DNA from: a virus
Taxonomy: Duplodnaviria > Heunggongvirae > Uroviricota > Caudoviricetes
Reading direction: 5' to 3' (one strand)
Length of the DNA stretch: 5,657 nt
Virus record (IMG/VR): IMGVR_UViG_2609460218_000011
Made by a program: the position numbers and the translations under genes. Every line of letters begins with the position of its first letter. Within the stretch, counting starts at the first letter, position 1. Positions 187-5,657 of the stretch are shown here, one piece after another. The notes beneath the pieces were generated by a model. That model ran no database searches. It was given only the letters and a program-made list of their open reading frames with translations, and had not been told where the DNA came from.

Positions 187-254
187 ATTTCACGATTATA
201 TACAGCGGCATTGCTCAGTCTGCACAAGTCACGGCCCCTCCGCAGAGCTGGCAG

Positions 255-1406
255 GTGGATATCACTCCGGAACTGAAAACAGCACTGAAAGCACCTAATC
301 GCCTGTCAGAAATTGCTGATGAAGGCAAAGAGGCACAACAGGAATCACGCGATAATCTCGGGCTAAAAAAAGCGGCCACAATGGAACCTCAGAATGGTAT
401 CCGTGACCGTTCTGAAGGTCGTCTGGCGACACCTGGTGCATTTGGTTTTAGTCACAGGTTTATTCCGGGGGAGGCCGTCAGGTTTAAATCTGAGGCTGAT
501 TTTCTGGCATGGGCAAGATATGTGGAGCCAGGAGAATATTATGTGGATGGGGCAAACGGTGTACTTCCCGGCATTGTTTTTCAGGGGGTGATAAGTATCC
601 GCTGGCTGGAAGCAAACCATAACCCACCACTTCCGTTACATACAGCAAAGGCCATTATTTTCTACGGCATTAATGGCAATATTTATTACAACCGTTACTG
701 GTCCACTGGTAATGGCTGGCTGACTGGCTGGGAAAACCTGAAAGTAAACGAGGTTGCACTCAGGGAACTTATTGAAACAAGGGCTCCTCTGGAAAGCCCG
801 GAATTCACAGGAAAGCCGACTACACCAACACCGCCGGATGATGCAGCAGGTAATGAAATTGCCAGTGTGGCCTTTGTTCGCAAACAGATGGAATCTCTTG
901 ACACCACTTCACCAGAGGGTCCCGAAATTTCTTCTGCGCCGACCAATTTACTGTCCAGACAACAATCCGGAGACTTATTTGTTGATGGCGCTCATCCGGT
1001 CATTCCAAAGGTGGCTGTAAGTACCCTGAACAGCAACCTGGATTCATTTAAAAGTCTGCCGGATGGTTCACGTATTTATGCTATGGAACTGGATGTATCT
1101 AATCCTGTCAGGAAATCCTCTGTTGGAGGAGTGGGTATCGCTGTTTCTGCTCTGCTCGAACCACGTTATCTCTACATGAATCAGAACCGACAATACATTC
1201 CTGCTCAGTATTTTGTCGGTTCTGTCTCGGCTACCGCGAGCACAATAACAGTAAGAATACGGGTGGTGATGCCAGACACACCTTACTATGCACTGGATAC
1301 ATCGACACTGGAGGAGACAGCCAGCGCAAAAAATGGACCTCTTCCCTGTATTGTGGTGGCAAAAATATTTGCGGGAACAACATTACGCCAGAACGGAATG
1401 GGGTAA
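255..1406 (+). CDS. Phage side tail fibre protein, C-terminal fragment; 5' end apparently replaced by the IS1 insertion
   Basis: Long ORF ending TAA 1404-1406. The frame has no stop between 99 and 255, so it stays open upstream through the IS1 junction at 186/187; GTG 255 is only the first possible start in the track. The segment FTGKPTTPTPPDDAAGNEIASVAFV (about nt 803-889) resembles the conserved phage tail-fibre repeat (F-T-G-x-P-T-x-P-T ... I-A-x-x-A-F-V). Composition is rich in G/S/T/N, typical of fibre distal domains. Confidence 0.6.
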   Translation: MDITPELKTALKAPNRLSEIADEGKEAQQESRDNLGLKKAATMEPQNGIRDRSEGRLATPGAFGFSHRFIPGEAVRFKSEADFLAWARYVEPGEYYVDGANGVLPGIVFQGVISIRWLEANHNPPLPLHTAKAIIFYGINGNIYYNRYWSTGNGWLTGWENLKVNEVALRELIETRAPLESPEFTGKPTTPTPPDDAAGNEIASVAFVRKQMESLDTTSPEGPEISSAPTNLLSRQQSGDLFVDGAHPVIPKVAVSTLNSNLDSFKSLPDGSRIYAMELDVSNPVRKSSVGGVGIAVSALLEPRYLYMNQNRQYIPAQYFVGSVSATASTITVRIRVVMPDTPYYALDTSTLEETASAKNGPLPCIVVAKIFAGTTLRQNGMG

Positions 1407-1430
1407 TATCCGGACACACAGGAAGAACAA

Positions 1431-1931
1431 ATGAACAATTCAACATGGATACGCTCTGTTTTGCGACCAGCCCCCATAGCTATTACCTGTTCAATGGTTT
1501 GCCTCCACCCATGGTCAGAAAATACGGGAAACATTACACCATCAGGGCATTACCTCAGCCCGGATAATGCTGTATCCGCGCTTTTACCTTATCTGACAGA
1601 AAACACAGAAAAAAGACGTTGTGGCGCTGTTATTTTGCGCCCCGTCTGCTGGCGAGTTTTTATCACTCGCCAGGCAATTTTCAGGCGCATTTCCGTTACC
1701 AGAGGTGGGACGAATGTCCCGCATGATCTCCAGCCAGTTTTCACTGGCCATCAGCAGAATGCAAATCCCCGCCAGACCGGTAACATCACTTCCGGAACCG
1801 ATAATGCTATCGACACAGACCACTCGCAGCATGTCGCTGGCGGCAACCATTGCACAGGCAGCCACTCCTGCCGTCACATCACCGGAAACATTGTCATCAT
1901 CACTGCGTCAGTTCATGAATGCGAGAGATAA
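1431..1931 (+). CDS. Hypothetical protein in the position expected for a tail-fibre assembly/chaperone gene; frame assignment ambiguous
   Basis: ATG 1431 lies 25 nt after the fibre stop and is preceded by the SD-like AGGAAG (1420-1425, 5-nt spacer). The downstream half of the translation is rich in Cys/His/Arg and looks like an out-of-frame read. It overlaps the frame-1 ORF 1621-2154 and the antisense ORF 1584-1877, which shares the same codon register. Confidence 0.3.
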   Translation: MNNSTWIRSVLRPAPIAITCSMVCLHPWSENTGNITPSGHYLSPDNAVSALLPYLTENTEKRRCGAVILRPVCWRVFITRQAIFRRISVTRGGTNVPHDLQPVFTGHQQNANPRQTGNITSGTDNAIDTDHSQHVAGGNHCTGSHSCRHITGNIVIITASVHECER

Positions 1932-2154
1932 AGCCTTACAGGAAATCGCTGATCAGCAGGCCGCACTCCGGCAAAAATTTTGCCCGGTGTGGCGCTTTTG
2001 CCACAAGGGAGCCCTTAGCCAGGCCGCAGTGCTGATACAAAAAAACATCCCACACCCCGAGTGGGTTTTTACAGCTGTGATGCTGTTCGTCGGCGATAAT
2101 CTCTCATCACTAAGGGAAACACTACATGACCCAGATGATTGTCCTTGCGCTTGA
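1621..2154 (+). CDS. Hypothetical protein, alternative frame; may be the continuation of the 1431 ORF after a frameshift
   Basis: This frame opens at 1597 (after TGA 1594-1596), 12 nt upstream of an A6 run (1609-1614). Internal ATG 1712 is preceded by GAGGTGGGA. The translation contains plausible helical stretches such as DKALQEIADQQAALRQK. Its end overlaps the 2126 start by 29 nt. Confidence 0.25.
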   Translation: MALLFCAPSAGEFLSLARQFSGAFPLPEVGRMSRMISSQFSLAISRMQIPARPVTSLPEPIMLSTQTTRSMSLAATIAQAATPAVTSPETLSSSLRQFMNARDKALQEIADQQAALRQKFCPVWRFCHKGALSQAAVLIQKNIPHPEWVFTAVMLFVGDNLSSLRETLHDPDDCPCA

Positions 2155-2701
2155 CGGGGAAGCCATTCTGCTGCGCAACATCACCGTCAGCGCCACCATG
2201 CAACTACCGGACAAAGATATGTCCGGACAATCAACCAGCACCACGAGCGCCCAGCAGGGAAACAAGGCCAAAGAGCTGCGCGTATCGGGGATTATTGATT
2301 TTAACGATGAAGCTATTTTGACCCGTATTTTTCAGCTTGCGGAGGCAACAGAAAGCAACGGAGCCAAAAAAACATACCGCATCGCCAACGCTACTGCTAA
2401 GGCGATTAATATGCGACAGGGTGTTTTTTCGGGCAGCATCGATGCCACGGAACAACAGGGCAAGATGCACTGGCAGGTCACCTTTACCCTCAGGGAAAAA
2501 TTAAGCGTGCCGGAAAAAGCATCGGCACGCAGTGGCTCACAGAAAACAATCGCAAAGCAGCAGACACAGAACGGCAGTGAGCAGGTACCGGATAAAGGAA
2601 TGAATACCCAGGAGACTTTCTGGAAAAATATCAATGATGGTATTGGCTCCGGTCTGGACTGGATTGGCATCGGGAGCGTGAAGGAGGAAGGGAAAACATG
2701 A
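2126..2701 (+). CDS. Hypothetical protein (191 aa), first gene of a coupled pair; probably phage-associated
   Basis: SD-like AAGGGA (2112-2117) lies 8 nt upstream of ATG 2126. Its stop TGA 2699-2701 overlaps the next start ATG 2698-2700 (ATGA), indicating translational coupling. No catalytic motif recognised by eye. Confidence 0.6.
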   Translation: MTQMIVLALDGEAILLRNITVSATMQLPDKDMSGQSTSTTSAQQGNKAKELRVSGIIDFNDEAILTRIFQLAEATESNGAKKTYRIANATAKAINMRQGVFSGSIDATEQQGKMHWQVTFTLREKLSVPEKASARSGSQKTIAKQQTQNGSEQVPDKGMNTQETFWKNINDGIGSGLDWIGIGSVKEEGKT

Positions 2702-4395
2702 AATTAATCCAACGCTGTATGATTAATGGCGAGCTGGCGGAAATTGCCGATATCAGCCTTGTTCTTACCCTGAATGCTGCCGGTCGTGGTTTCATTTCTG
2801 TTAATAATCTGCCACCCAAAAAAAGTCTTGCCGGCGCAATGATACAAATTGATCTCGGCCGTAATGGTGAGGCATGGCGCTATTTCTCCGGCTACATTGA
2901 ACGCGATCAACCCGCCGAAAATGGCTCACGCCGCCTTTTTATCCGTGAAGCAGCTGCCGTGCTGGATTTTGATTTCCCCTGCTCCATGCAACATCCAACG
3001 TTACGGGATGTACTCGATAATCTGGGTAAACAAAGCGGCATCGTTTTCATCACGCCAGACGCGGATTACGTCGGTACTCCGACACCTTACATCACCCACA
3101 GCGGCAGCGGAACACAACTGCTTAGCCAGCTGGGGCGAGCATTCAGTATCAGCGATTACGTCTGGCATCCAATGCCGGACGGTTCCGTATTTGTGGGAAG
3201 CGCATCGGATTCACGGTTTGCCAGTATTACCATGCCGGATATTCCGCAACAGTACACACTCGGGCAAAGCGGCGGAAACAGCATCGACATCATGTTTATG
3301 GAAACTGTGCGACCGGGCGTGAACCTTCCAGCCGGGCGCATTACCCGTGTAGCCCTCAACAACGAGAAAATGACCCTGACATGGGAACGCCTTACCACCA
3401 CGGGTAGCCCTGTTTCCAAATCACCATTACGCAGACAGATGGAAACACAGTTCCCGGAACTGGCCAGCGGTACTCTACATACCAGGCTGGCGCGCGTCAT
3501 TGCCCCAACGGAATCCGTCACCCTGGGCGATGTTGCCGACAGTTTCCGCCCACGCTACGCCGTCGATGTGCAACTGCTTGATGAGAACGGCAACGATAAA
3601 AGCGATACGCCTGTTTATCCGGCAGTACCACTCCCCGTCCCGATGGCTGGTAGCGAGGCGGGATGTTTTGCCTACCCGCCGGCTGGCACCATCGTGGAAA
3701 TATCCAACATTGAAGGACGACCGGATAAACCTGTCATCAGGCAAATCTTACCCGCAGGCCATAACCTGCCTGATGTAAAGCCCGGCGAACAGCTGCAGCA
3801 ACAGCGCGCAGAAGTGTTTCAGCGCGTCACAACTGACGGAAGCTGGCACAGAGAAACCGACCAGCAAATCAGGGAGCATTCAGCCAGGCGAACCATTAAC
3901 AGCGATCAGGAAGAACGCACAACAACAACCAGAACAACAACAGTCCAGGCAAACGACATAACCAGTGTTCTTGGTACCAGCAAACTGATGACAGGCCAGA
4001 CAGAACACCTTACTACCGGCAATTATGCGATCGCAGCCGGTGAGCATATCCAGATGGTAGCGCAGGATTTGCTGACTCAACTCAAAGGGGCGATATCCAC
4101 CATTGAGCATGACCTCACCGAAAACGTGGGAGGCCGCAGAACATGCAGAGCGGACGGCGGTCTGGAGTTTACCGCTCCGACAGTATTTATTGGTCGCGGC
4201 GGCTCGCGGGAAAAGTCAGGGCTTAACCTGCTGACGTTGCTGATCGATATTCTGGATCTGATTCAATTACTGGCCACACATACAGCAAACCACACCCATA
4301 GCAACACTGACGCACCAATGAACAGCAGCGAACTTGCCGCAGATGCCCTGCAGGCGACGAGCCTGCGCGAAAAATACGGCGACATTATCGCCTGA
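2698..4395 (+). CDS. Hypothetical protein (565 aa), possibly a phage tail/fibre-associated structural protein
   Basis: Longest ORF in the window. AGGAGG (2682-2687) and GGGAA lie upstream of ATG 2698, which is coupled to the upstream gene. It contains a Thr-rich low-complexity tract (ERTTTTRTTTVQ, about nt 3910-3947) and a C-terminal His-rich motif ATHTANHTHSNTD (about nt 4273-4311). It is followed by a hairpin terminator. No NTPase or nuclease motif recognised. Confidence 0.7.
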   Translation: MKLIQRCMINGELAEIADISLVLTLNAAGRGFISVNNLPPKKSLAGAMIQIDLGRNGEAWRYFSGYIERDQPAENGSRRLFIREAAAVLDFDFPCSMQHPTLRDVLDNLGKQSGIVFITPDADYVGTPTPYITHSGSGTQLLSQLGRAFSISDYVWHPMPDGSVFVGSASDSRFASITMPDIPQQYTLGQSGGNSIDIMFMETVRPGVNLPAGRITRVALNNEKMTLTWERLTTTGSPVSKSPLRRQMETQFPELASGTLHTRLARVIAPTESVTLGDVADSFRPRYAVDVQLLDENGNDKSDTPVYPAVPLPVPMAGSEAGCFAYPPAGTIVEISNIEGRPDKPVIRQILPAGHNLPDVKPGEQLQQQRAEVFQRVTTDGSWHRETDQQIREHSARRTINSDQEERTTTTRTTTVQANDITSVLGTSKLMTGQTEHLTTGNYAIAAGEHIQMVAQDLLTQLKGAISTIEHDLTENVGGRRTCRADGGLEFTAPTVFIGRGGSREKSGLNLLTLLIDILDLIQLLATHTANHTHSNTDAPMNSSELAADALQATSLREKYGDIIA

Positions 4396-4435
4396 ACACC
4401 AGACATAAAAGCCACATAAACGCCCCATCACGCAA

Positions 4436-4459
4436 CGCACGGTCCCGGCCGTGCGTTTT
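4436..4459 (+). terminator. Putative Rho-independent terminator of the 191/565-aa operon
   Basis: Stem CGCACGG (4436-4442), loop TCCCGG, stem CCGTGCG (4449-4455), then TTTT (4456-4459); 41 nt downstream of the stop at 4395. The T-tract is short. Confidence 0.5.
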
Positions 4460-4935
4460 CATATCTGCCACCTGATTAATCGTTCTGCGTGCCATTCTGG
4501 CGCTGTATGCGCACACCGCGCAAACGGCGTGACGTAAAGCGTGAGGTGACGTAAACCGCGCTACCCCCTCCAACCCGCGGGTTTTGTGTCGAAACACTTT
4601 TTCAGTTTTCTGCCGTGCAAAAATGACCGCCAGCCCGCGCAGCGACTGAGGGAAAAGCGAAGATCTGAAATTTCACGCTTTGAAATTTTTTGCAGTTTTC
4701 AGCGAGTTTTTTACGATCTCATAAATGGCAGGAGCAATGAAACTGCATGATATTAAAAGAGTTTTCATGCTTTGCGCGAGACGAAAAACGATCAAAAAGG
4801 ATCGCGACAAAAAATCGTCAAACAACGAAGCCAGACGCGGCGCGGCCTGCGTAAAATTGAGAGTCAAAATTAAACTGAAAAAAGGATCAATAACGCGCCT
4901 CGATCGCACATGACGATCTACGCAGCAACAGAGCG

Positions 4936-4958
4936 AAAAAAACCGGCGCGAACGCCGG
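4936..4958 (-). terminator. Strong Rho-independent terminator acting on the minus strand
   Basis: On the minus strand: CCGGCG (comp. 4953-4958), UUCG tetraloop, CGCCGG (comp. 4943-4948), then seven U (comp. 4936-4942). The plus strand has no T-tract after the hairpin, so it is directional. Confidence 0.55.
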
Positions 4959-5000
4959 CGGAAGCATGTATCAAATGCGTGACTGAATAATGTATAAGGT
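4936..5000 (-). ncRNA. Candidate small RNA of about 60 nt, transcribed divergently from the hok-type promoter
   Basis: Minus-strand sigma70-like promoter: -35 TTGAGG (complement of 5030-5035), 18-bp spacer, -10 TAAAAT (complement of 5006-5011). This predicts a start near 4998-5000 and termination at the 4936-4958 terminator. No ORF of note lies inside. Confidence 0.25.
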
Positions 5001-5039
5001 CGGGAATTTTACATCAGAAGACCGACAAACCTCAACGGA

Positions 5040-5069
5040 TTGAAACAAGGGAAAAAACCAGGCTAGAAT
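5040..5069 (+). promoter_or_regulatory. Sigma70-like promoter of the hok-type toxin transcript
   Basis: -35 TTGAAA (5040-5045), 18-bp spacer, -10 TAGAAT (5064-5069). The predicted start near 5076 coincides with the first base of the 5' fold-back element. Confidence 0.45.
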
Positions 5070-5075
5070 TCGCGC

Positions 5076-5427
5076 GGGTGCCTTTCGGCTGATGGCTGGA
5101 GGGAATACCTGAAGGCCGGATGTGGAAAGGCCCCGGAAAACATTTTTGTTTAACCGAGGCCCTAACCATCTACCCTAGACAAGTGATAGGTTAGCGCCTC
5201 CCCGAAAAAGGAGCAAGCGCTATGTCGCAAAAATCGCTTACAGCCATCACGTTCTGCGTGACGGCAATCCTCATCATCTGGATGTTGCACGGTTCACTGT
5301 GTGAGATACGGATGAGTTTTTGGGGAGCGGAGTTTGCGGCGTTCTTACAGTGTAAACAGTAAGGAAACCGCGGCGGGGGAGCAATCCCCCGTCAATCGGT
5401 TGCTAAGGTAAGGTCGTAAAGGCACCC
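5076..5427 (+). other. hok/gef-type toxin mRNA unit with 5' (tac-like) and 3' (fbi-like) complementary elements
   Basis: GGGTGCCTTT at 5076-5085 is the exact reverse complement of AAAGGCACCC at 5418-5427 (10/10). A GC-rich hairpin (GGGGGA-GCAA-TCCCCC, 5375-5390) sits in the 3' UTR. This matches the long-range 5'/3' pairing known for hok mRNAs. Confidence 0.55.
5222..5362 (+). CDS. Hok/Gef-family type I toxin (46 aa), small membrane peptide
   Basis: Translation: MSQKSLTAITFCVTAILIIWMLHGSLCEIRMSFWGAEFAAFLQCKQ. It has an N-terminal hydrophobic helix, the conserved SLCEIR motif and a C-terminal Cys, as in Hok-family peptides. SD AAGGAG (5208-5213) lies 8 nt upstream of ATG 5222; stop TAA 5360-5362. 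Not in the ORF track because it is under 60 codons. The specific paralogue is not recognised, so no symbol is given. Confidence 0.75.
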   Translation: MSQKSLTAITFCVTAILIIWMLHGSLCEIRMSFWGAEFAAFLQCKQ

Positions 5428-5486
5428 TATCTTCTAACATATGAGTGGAAAATCCTACGGGGAAAAATGTAAACCTCGTCCTTGCC

Positions 5487-5657
5487 GGTGATGCTGCCAA
5501 CTTACTGATTTAGTGTATGATGGTGTTTTTGAGGTGCTCCAGTGGCTTCTGTTTCTATCAGCTGTCCCTCCTGTTCAGCTACTGACGGGGTGGTGCGTAA
5601 CGGCAAAAGCACCGCCGGACATCAGCGCTATCTCTGCTCTCACTGCCGTAAAACACT
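5487..5657 (+). mobile_element. IS1-family insertion sequence, partial copy cut by the window edge; IRL terminus at 5487
   Basis: GGTGATGCTGCCAACTTACTGATTTAGTG... in forward orientation, the reverse complement of positions 16-186. The last two bases (5656-5657, CT) differ from the left copy (TG). Confidence 0.9.
5542..5657 (+). CDS. insA: IS1 InsA, N-terminal portion; continues past the window end
   Basis: GTG 5542 opens a frame translating [38 protein letters not shown]..., matching the InsA N-terminus. Confidence 0.85.

Follow-up and report, generated by a model that had tools for sequence, protein, structure and literature searches.

We analysed a 5,657-nucleotide (nt) stretch of DNA from a virus of the class Caudoviricetes (IMG/VR record IMGVR_UViG_2609460218_000011; the whole stretch is hereafter called the window), which carries towards its 3' end a gene, hok, for a toxin of 46 amino acids (aa). 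This region is probably a type I toxin-antitoxin module of the hok/sok type that has no mok, the overlapping frame to which hok translation is coupled in canonical loci, and in which hok's own Shine-Dalgarno sequence (SD) would be the switched site. The hok/mok/sok locus of plasmid R1 is the paradigm of type I toxin-antitoxin control, and the textbook model treats mok as essential. From sequence, homology and covariation, we recognised a hok promoter, a folded mRNA, the tac-fbi and tac-ucb pairings, a Sok-target hairpin and a Sok-like antisense gene, together with the absence of mok (Table 1). With every RNA element retained and mok absent, the clade provides a natural experiment that can tell the essential parts of the design from the others. 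Our literature searches for mok-less hok loci found no description of such a clade, and the newest survey of Hok diversity (Escalera-Maurer et al. preprint) left Mok unanalysed across homologues, as it is hard to call.

Absence of mok from the 46-aa Hok clade

The first-pass annotation of the window had reported the hok start to be free of any overlapping reading frame, and all the stops and coordinates given there proved correct. One alternative frame of the leader is closed by TAA 5151, TAA 5163, TGA 5184 and TAG 5187, the other by TGA 5110 and TAG 5176, and beyond the last stop of each frame the window has no further ATG, GTG or TTG ahead of hok. Closed frames are the chance expectation for non-coding DNA and are therefore informative only by contrast with homologous loci. 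For this contrast we used a mok test that asks for GAGG, a start codon 4-10 nt later, and a frame open to the hok start. The test was passed by none of the 29 representatives of the 46-aa Hok clade (<96% identity to one another), but by 72 of the 75 prophage loci of the hokC/hokW type taken as a control. The annotated mokB and mokC of Escherichia coli K-12 also pass on SD plus ATG, whereas the window fails. The control loci reach hok in three frame offsets (in frame in 44, offset 1 in 25, offset 2 in 3); since their mok open reading frames (ORFs) pass in all three, it is the act of translation that is conserved there and not the Mok product. In this type of prophage locus (L114-L193), the mok-like ATG stands 7-8 nt after GAGG.

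The leader still contains the GAGG box that is homologous to the mok SD. We compared the window with R1 hok/mok/sok (parB) through the R1-type locus of an IncFII plasmid (L113), where an ATG 8 nt after GAGG opens a frame to hok; the window has ATC at this place, and all its frames are closed. In a MAFFT alignment, the ATGs of mokB and mokC fall within 1-2 nt of ATC 5168, and relatives read GTC, CTT, GCA or other triplets at this position. The only near-cognate starts that follow the GAGG box in the window are ATC 5168, GTG 5183 and ATA 5186. These were rejected as non-canonical mok starts, all being in the hok frame, closed by TAG 5192 and not conserved. Alignment with characterised loci, which had been proposed in the first-pass annotation as a way to bring out a mok-like frame or an antisense RNA gene, thus restored no mok-like frame, but it did yield the antisense gene (see below). 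With regard to the loci that have mok, mokC and hokC of K-12 share a stop codon (L004, 352-561), and in the IncFII locus (L113, 344-559) the ATG of mok is in the hok frame with no stop between; being in the hok frame, "Mok" is there an N-terminally extended Hok.

No ORF overlaps the hok start in 16 of the 29 representatives, and the other 13 owe their overlapping ORF to insertions or deletions, with an ATG at -103 in four, a GTG at -100 in three and odd starts in six. The odd starts (GTG or TTG) have no SD-like motif upstream. The overlapping frames of the remaining seven were also considered as mok and rejected, because they depend on insertions or deletions, differ in their starts and fail the mok test; none of their starts is spaced from GAGG as from an SD, and only a weak AAGG or GAAGG lies 4-6 nt upstream of them. 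Among the leaders of 28 representatives, the hok+2 frame, which is the frame of mokB, was the poorest in stops (38 vs. 68 and 83). It is fully open in the common phage allele of the L013 type and in some Salmonella copies, with no GAGG-spaced start ahead of it, and its low stop count could be left over from an ancestral mok.

The sole upstream ORF, which runs in the hok frame from ATG 5120 and ends short of hok, is present as first described. It is conceivable that it acts as a short mok blocked by Sok, where the terminating ribosome would cover the anti-SD (5198-5201), free the hok SD and allow (re-)initiation 27 nt further on. Several features speak for this: the ORF lies wholly within the Sok-complementary stretch, GAAGG precedes its ATG by 4 nt, the ATG is largely free of pairing when the truncated RNA is folded (P = 0.66), and in R1 translation of mok is needed only up to the region of the hok SD (PMC9841398). 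Conservation of the ORF, however, argues against it. An equivalent of ATG 5120 is missing in 27 of the 114 family instances; members from Salmonella and Klebsiella, like hokB, carry GAAAGACGAAGG in its place, and it is also missing in some other members. Where the ATG is present, the end positions are scattered (-45 in 51 instances, -30 in 16, overlapping hok in 10, and -46, -51, -60, -71 or -81 in the remaining 10), and the ORF of the Stx-phage copy stops after only 8 codons. In addition, the region of ATG 5120 is accounted for by the tac-ucb pairing, which shows compensatory changes. As neither its start nor its end is conserved, we rejected the upstream ORF as the main explanation, and we regard control by a short mok as very improbable. 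On these sequence comparisons, mok is missing throughout the 46-aa Hok clade (sampled from E. coli, Salmonella, Klebsiella and Citrobacter), as a trait of the clade and not through the decay of one copy.

Conserved RNA elements and a Sok-like antisense gene

The leader matched the Rfam family RF01794 over its full model length (5076-5235, + strand; 46.3 bits, E = 3e-8), although the score is below the gathering score of 59. What this family, named sok, in fact models is the sense leader, which it covers from the 5' end up to the AUG of hok. The leaders of K-12 hokB and hokC can also be aligned with that of the window, at the promoter -10, GGGTGCC, GCCCCG, AACCGAGGCC and GCCTC. The window has in common with the R1-type locus the Hok/Gef toxin, AAGGAG, tac, ucb, the GAGG box, the target hairpin, dcb and fbi, as well as a 3' hairpin ahead of the truncation point. 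The two also share the position of the Sok -10 just past the target hairpin and of the Sok -35 over the hok SD, and a Sok RNA in which a long hairpin comes after a single-stranded 5' tail.

To evaluate the predicted conformations of the mRNA, we used a set of 20 sequences, drawn from phages of E. coli and from E. albertii, Salmonella, Klebsiella and Citrobacter, with slid controls in which the partners were moved by 1-3 columns. In the full-length conformation, 96.8% of cells were paired, compared with 35-48% in the slid controls, and nine pairs had changed on both sides; in the truncated conformation, 96.0% were paired, and six pairs had changed on both sides. Over both conformations, the slid controls reached 35-53%. 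For both conformations, none of 500 shuffles attained either the paired percentage or the covariation score. The tac-fbi helix, which is part of the full-length minimum free energy (MFE) structure, comprises 13 pairs, of which 96.9% of cells were paired and four had changed on both sides. When the RNA is folded without its 3' end, tac (5076-5086) pairs with ucb (5125-5134) in a helix that is 94.0% paired, and the GAGG box pairs with GCCUC. Positions 5085/5086 of tac covary with fbi 5417/5416 (UA/CG, CG/GC) and with ucb 5126/5125, that is, with both alternative partners. The ucb pair G5129-C5161 is GC in 19 sequences and AU in seven. One Salmonella copy has GAGA in the box (G5159A), and there C5131U and C5197U restore both alternative helices.

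No stretch of the leader varies more than the loop of the target hairpin (5168-5188; 21 nt). A YUNR motif was found in this loop in 27/27 representatives, which in the window is CUAG 5175-5178 and includes TAG 5176. A hypervariable loop with a constant YUNR motif fits a determinant of Sok specificity. The target hairpin of the window exceeds the hokC one by 8 nt. Downstream, the hairpin that would sequester the hok SD has an outer stem (5193-5197/5217-5221) that was 99% paired with only wobble-preserving variation, and an anti-SD (C5198-C5201) that pairs with G5210-G5213. Near the end of the coding sequence (CDS), the helix that a short segment forms with the hok start region was 99.5% paired, and this pairing accounts for the nucleotide-level conservation there. 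The GC-rich hairpin after the stop codon is presumed, by analogy with the R1-type locus, to protect the 3' end of the truncated mRNA. Taken together, all the RNA switch elements of hok are recognisable in the sequence, with covariation.

Our analyses also placed a Sok-like antisense gene in the leader, where no antisense promoter had been located by eye in the first-pass annotation, a miss that reflects the limits of visual inspection. The annotated K-12 sokB, with its -10 TAAGAT followed by 7 nt and the +1, served as the template for the 5' end of the antisense RNA; the sokB -10 is the complement of the sequence directly 5' of GCCTC. In the window, homology to sokB, sokC and sokW puts the -10 hexamer at the corresponding place. 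This hexamer is TAACCT in 25 of the 27 representatives and TATCCT in the other two, and the spacer to the -35 is 17 nt in 27/27. In a Stx-phage relative, the -35 reads TTGACT. In the predicted Sok, the 5' tail is unpaired and complements the target loop, and a long hairpin comes after it (-26.9 kcal/mol, z = -4.3). The leader of hokW has the identical hexamer TAACCT at the identical place, and mutation of the sokW promoter, using primer YO-421 that replaces AGGTTAG, abolished antitoxin activity (Takada et al. 2021, PMC8621323), which supports our assignment. The TAG at the end of the upstream ORF belongs to AGGTTA(G) and is thus no more than the complement of the -10 region of Sok. The promoter-prediction scan that had been suggested earlier was less useful: a generic promoter and terminator scan of the window found the hok promoter and no Sok promoter, being blind to the latter because each hexamer fits the consensus at 3/6 positions. 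We did not take this miss as proof that Sok is absent, since such 3/6 hexamers escape the scan and sokW has the same -10. By its sequence features, a cis-encoded Sok-like antisense gene is present in the leader.

Table 1. Features of the mok-less hok/sok-type locus and of its 3' flank, in window coordinates (RBS, ribosome-binding site).
Feature	Position	Strand	Basis or remark
hok promoter, TTGAAA-18 nt-TAGAAT	5040-5069	+	promoter scan, 10/12 matches; -10 aligns with K-12 hokB/hokC
Predicted transcription start, G5076	5076	+	promoter position; RF01794 match also begins here
hok mRNA body, about 357 nt, 3' end undefined in the window copy	5076-5431	+	MFE -158.2 kcal/mol, z = -7.6 vs. shuffles
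tac, pairs with fbi or ucb	5076-5088	+	5085/5086 covary with both partners
Upstream ORF of 24 codons, hok frame	5120-5194	+	TAG 5192-5194, 27 nt short of hok; sequence; not conserved
ucb (upstream complementary box), partner of GAGG box (full-length) or tac (truncated)	5125-5136	+	folds; covariation
GAGG box, homologous to mok SD, no start codon after it	5156-5159	+	within conserved AACCGAGGCC motif
Sok-target hairpin of truncated mRNA, GAGGC/GCCUC and CUAACC/GGUUAG	5156-5200	+	truncated MFE; helix 93.6% paired
ATC 8 nt past GAGG box	5168-5170	+	same spacing as ATG of R1-type mok and mokC
Sok-like antisense RNA, ~60 nt	~5180 to ~5121	-	5' end by sokB homology; 3' end approximate
Sok -10, TAACCT	5193-5188	-	homology to annotated sokB/sokC and to sokW promoter
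Predicted hairpin sequestering hok SD	5193-5221	+	MFE in full-length and Sok-blocked states
hok SD, AAGGAG, 8-nt spacer to ATG	5208-5213	+	sequence; motif common to R1-type, hokB and hokC
Sok -35, TTGCTC, over hok SD	5216-5211	-	17-nt spacer to -10
hok CDS, 46 aa	5222-5362	+	stop 5360-5362; Pfam PF01848 HOK_GEF, 29.9 bits (cut-off 22), E = 4e-7
3' CDS segment pairing with hok start region 5222-5231	5333-5342	+	helix of predicted fold
GC-rich hairpin after stop codon	5374-5391	+	three pairs with compensatory changes; position analogous to R1-type
fbi (fold-back inhibition element), complementary to tac	5414-5427	+	MFE; covariation
IS1 left end, 59 nt past fbi	5487-5657	+	100% identity to strain 33-6 IS1A

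Proposed switch at the hok ribosome-binding site

The first-pass annotation had singled out the strong SD of hok. AAGGAG does lie 8 nt upstream of the start, but this is not distinctive, as the same motif stands 7-9 nt ahead of the start in R1-type hok, hokB and hokC; judged by sequence, a strong hok SD is ordinary for the family. What differs is the predicted behaviour of the ribosome-binding site (RBS). As the measure of accessibility we took the energy predicted for opening the entire RBS in the full-length, the truncated and the truncated but Sok-site-blocked RNA. The mean unpaired probability of the SD was considered as a measure and set aside in favour of the opening energy, since it barely separated the states; it is uninformative because 2-bp helices count as paired.

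For the hok RBS, the clade mean was 11.8 (full-length), 8.6 (truncated) and 12.2 kcal/mol (Sok-blocked), and the values in the window were 9.2, 8.1 and 10.2 kcal/mol. Among the clade sequences, the truncated form was lower than the full-length form in 27/27 and lower than the Sok-blocked form in 26/27. The mok-containing controls showed their big change at the mok site, with the hok site shut or little altered. In the R1-type locus, the mok RBS fell from 13.4 kcal/mol in the full-length to 7.1 kcal/mol in the truncated RNA, and the hok RBS was at 17.5, 17.0 and 17.4 kcal/mol in the three states; for hokB, the mokB RBS fell from 14.6 to 3.4 kcal/mol, and the hokB RBS was at 13.5, 11.4 and 13.5 kcal/mol. 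The predicted switch of the R1-type locus is thus at the mok RBS, with the hok RBS shut at ~17 kcal/mol, whereas in the clade of the window the hok RBS is looser and itself changes. These model energies suggest that in the 46-aa clade the switch has shifted from the mok site to the own RBS of hok.

A relay consistent with these predictions would work as follows. In the full-length RNA, the pairing of tac with fbi and of ucb with the GAGG box would leave the anti-SD free to close the hok SD. After 3' trimming, tac would take ucb and GAGG would pair with GCCUC (5196-5200), which would remove the anti-SD and loosen the hok RBS. The anti-SD (5198-5201) overlaps GCCUC, and the SD-closing and target hairpins are therefore mutually exclusive. 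Hok would then be translated from its own SD, itself the switched element. Sok bound on 5121-5180 would strip GAGG from GCCUC, so that the anti-SD could close the hok RBS again, and the duplex of Sok and mRNA is probably also cut by RNase III. It is possible, and we propose it only tentatively, that the clade has in this way dropped mok coupling for a pure RNA relay, in which Sok acts ~28 nt from the hok RBS and the mok SD has been kept as a structural or standby element. If true, an RNA-only relay would mean that a leader peptide is not necessary to the hok/sok design. The mok-less clade also has relevance to the triggering of Hok with anti-Sok oligonucleotides.

Known type I systems offer functional parallels to such a scheme. 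In aapA3/IsoA3 of Helicobacter pylori, the toxin SD is hidden by alternative structures and processing activates the RNA, with no leader ORF, much as we propose for the window; a comparison of aapA3 with hok has been drawn previously (PMC9841398). Neither this system nor tisB/IstR-1 has sequence or structural homology to the window, the architecture of which is wholly of the hok type. The tisB/IstR-1 system of E. coli is a type I system without a leader peptide, and is also similar to the proposed scheme.

The tisB/IstR-1 system suggests a close alternative to the relay, in which the GAGG box and the 21-nt loop would load a standby 30S subunit and Sok would compete with it from afar, again with no leader peptide. 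For such control, tisB is said to provide the precedent, in work of Darfeuille et al. from 2007. Consistent with a standby role, the GAGG box is kept in 26/27 representatives without a following start codon, Sok stays clear of the hok SD (28 nt between the SD and the complement of the Sok 5' end), and the hok RBS is partly closed even in the truncated form. Against it, GAGG is within a stem in both conformations, and the compensations in the GAGA copy keep the structure and not the SD strength. We consider such standby control unlikely.

Nonetheless, our arguments for the RNA relay need to be weighed against several points. The relay is a thermodynamic prediction, with a truncation point assumed by analogy to R1. 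The effect is small in the window itself, and opening the RBS of the truncated form still costs ~8 kcal/mol. With regard to Sok, its -10 and -35 each match the consensus at only 3/6 positions and were not called by the generic scan, and conservation of the hexamers is also explicable by the overlapping RNA helices and SD. An open frame overlapping hok is present in about half of the sampled instances (L013 type), with GTG, ATG or TTG starts; none of the L013-type starts is at SD spacing after GAGG, and the GTG alone is preceded, at 6 nt, by a weak AAGG. Lastly, mutations of the R1 mok start codon and early stops in mok abolish Hok production (PMC9841398), and a mok-less relative might therefore be silent.

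The Hok peptide, the 3' end and the genomic setting

A silent or decaying locus would have neither mok nor hok translation, and would be kept by hitch-hiking with its prophage, or solely for Sok, which would serve as an anti-addiction element when other hok loci come in. Besides the requirement for mok in the R1 paradigm, this would be in line with a window copy that has no terminator and sits in an IS1-bracketed prophage remnant, with the truncated and frameshifted Hok variants that are present in databases, and with the K-12 hok loci, which are known as inactivated. The Hok sequences point the other way. Among mok-less members across genera, the median dN/dS was 0.24 (maximum 0.56), and the window hok differs from that of a P2-like phage by eight synonymous and no non-synonymous changes; by this measure, the hok ORF of mok-less lineages is under purifying selection. 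The identical 46-aa peptide occurs in 80 viral contigs. It is also identical to 72_1621 of the Escalera-Maurer et al. preprint, in which 42 of 45 assayed Hok peptides are reported as toxic; 72_1621 was assayed and is not among the three named as non-toxic. In addition, all the RNA elements that serve solely the control of hok translation have been kept by compensatory changes. We thus find it quite improbable that the locus is silent, and prefer the reading of a mok-less module that is switched at the hok SD.

Decay is nonetheless evident at the 3' end. In most relatives, fbi is followed after ~20 nt by a strong terminator (AAACCCGCAGCG...CTGCGGGTTTTCTTTTT), whereas the terminator scan and the comparison with relatives found none after fbi in the window or in the allele free of IS1. 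Both depart from the relatives directly after fbi. With IS1 so close downstream as well, the window copy may no longer be properly expressed. The first-pass annotation had offered variant control or partial decay as alternatives, and each applies to a different part of the locus: a variant scheme fits the absence of mok, which is clade-wide in lineages with a selected hok, and the decay that the sequence comparison reveals is real, and is the loss of the terminator at the 3' end, not of mok in the leader.

With regard to the peptide, the 46-aa CDS is named Hok/Gef family protein by PGAP, and the N-terminus was MSQK or MLQK in 67/67 database homologues inspected, of which the longer ones are C-terminal read-throughs. 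The toxins of hokB and hokC are slightly longer (49-50 aa). In phage records (L001, 1659-1799; L002, 1675-1815), the label "MokW-like host killing", derived from PHROG, sits on the 46-aa hok CDS. We rejected this label as evidence of a mok because the CDS is hok itself, and hokW proper, as found in Sp5, is another gene; as a consequence for annotation, the "MokW-like" labels of phages belong to hok. The hokW-sokW locus of the Stx2 prophage Sp5 (PMC8621323) resembles the window in being prophage-borne and in its Sok -10, but it encodes a hokC-like toxin of 51 aa (MKQQKAM...) and has a mok-like ATG at 8 nt from GAGG, and the window toxin belongs to another clade. Salmonella HokST was likewise rejected as a clade member, being a plasmid gene outside the 46-aa clade.

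The 46-aa Hok clade corresponds to cluster 72 of the 2026 preprint of Escalera-Maurer et al. It is carried mainly by P2-like prophages and Stx phages of E. coli, and it also occurs in Salmonella, Klebsiella and Citrobacter. The mok-less clade is common in E. coli genomes: 1750 of 5426 complete genomes had at least a partial match to the queried region, and the best match had at least 90% identity in 963 records. Tandem arrays of two to three complete 46-aa hok loci, ~490-640 bp apart, were observed in Salmonella enterica (L100-L102, L103, L104, L109, L110), where every copy has its own divergent target loop. In another Salmonella copy (L093, ~800-1000), the hok ORF and 3' elements are intact and the promoter/tac region is swapped for unrelated sequence; this is probably a 5'-truncated locus.

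The window is E. coli DNA. Its positions 187-5486 have 99.85% identity to the remnant of a prophage that lies between glsA and copA of strain 33-6, and this remnant includes one gene for a tail-collar fibre and three that are hypothetical. IS1 is present in inverted orientation at both ends of the window, with 99.5% (2-190) and 100% (5487-5655) identity to IS1A of strain 33-6. The 5.3-kb remnant that carries hok is thus flanked by IS1 in an arrangement that resembles a composite transposon, and the left copy cuts short the tail-collar fibre gene when compared with strain 33-6. Within the phage genes, a weak RsmY-like Rfam match (2044-2185, - strand; 18.8 bits, E = 0.24, far short of the gathering score of 57) is probably due to chance. 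Just upstream of the hok promoter, a strong terminator-like hairpin (GCCGGCGTTCGCGCCGGT then T7) lies on the minus strand at 4942-4959, with a promoter-like site on the same strand at 5006-5035, ~45 nt before it. This pair could specify a small transcript, or the hairpin could be a stop for read-through from Sok.

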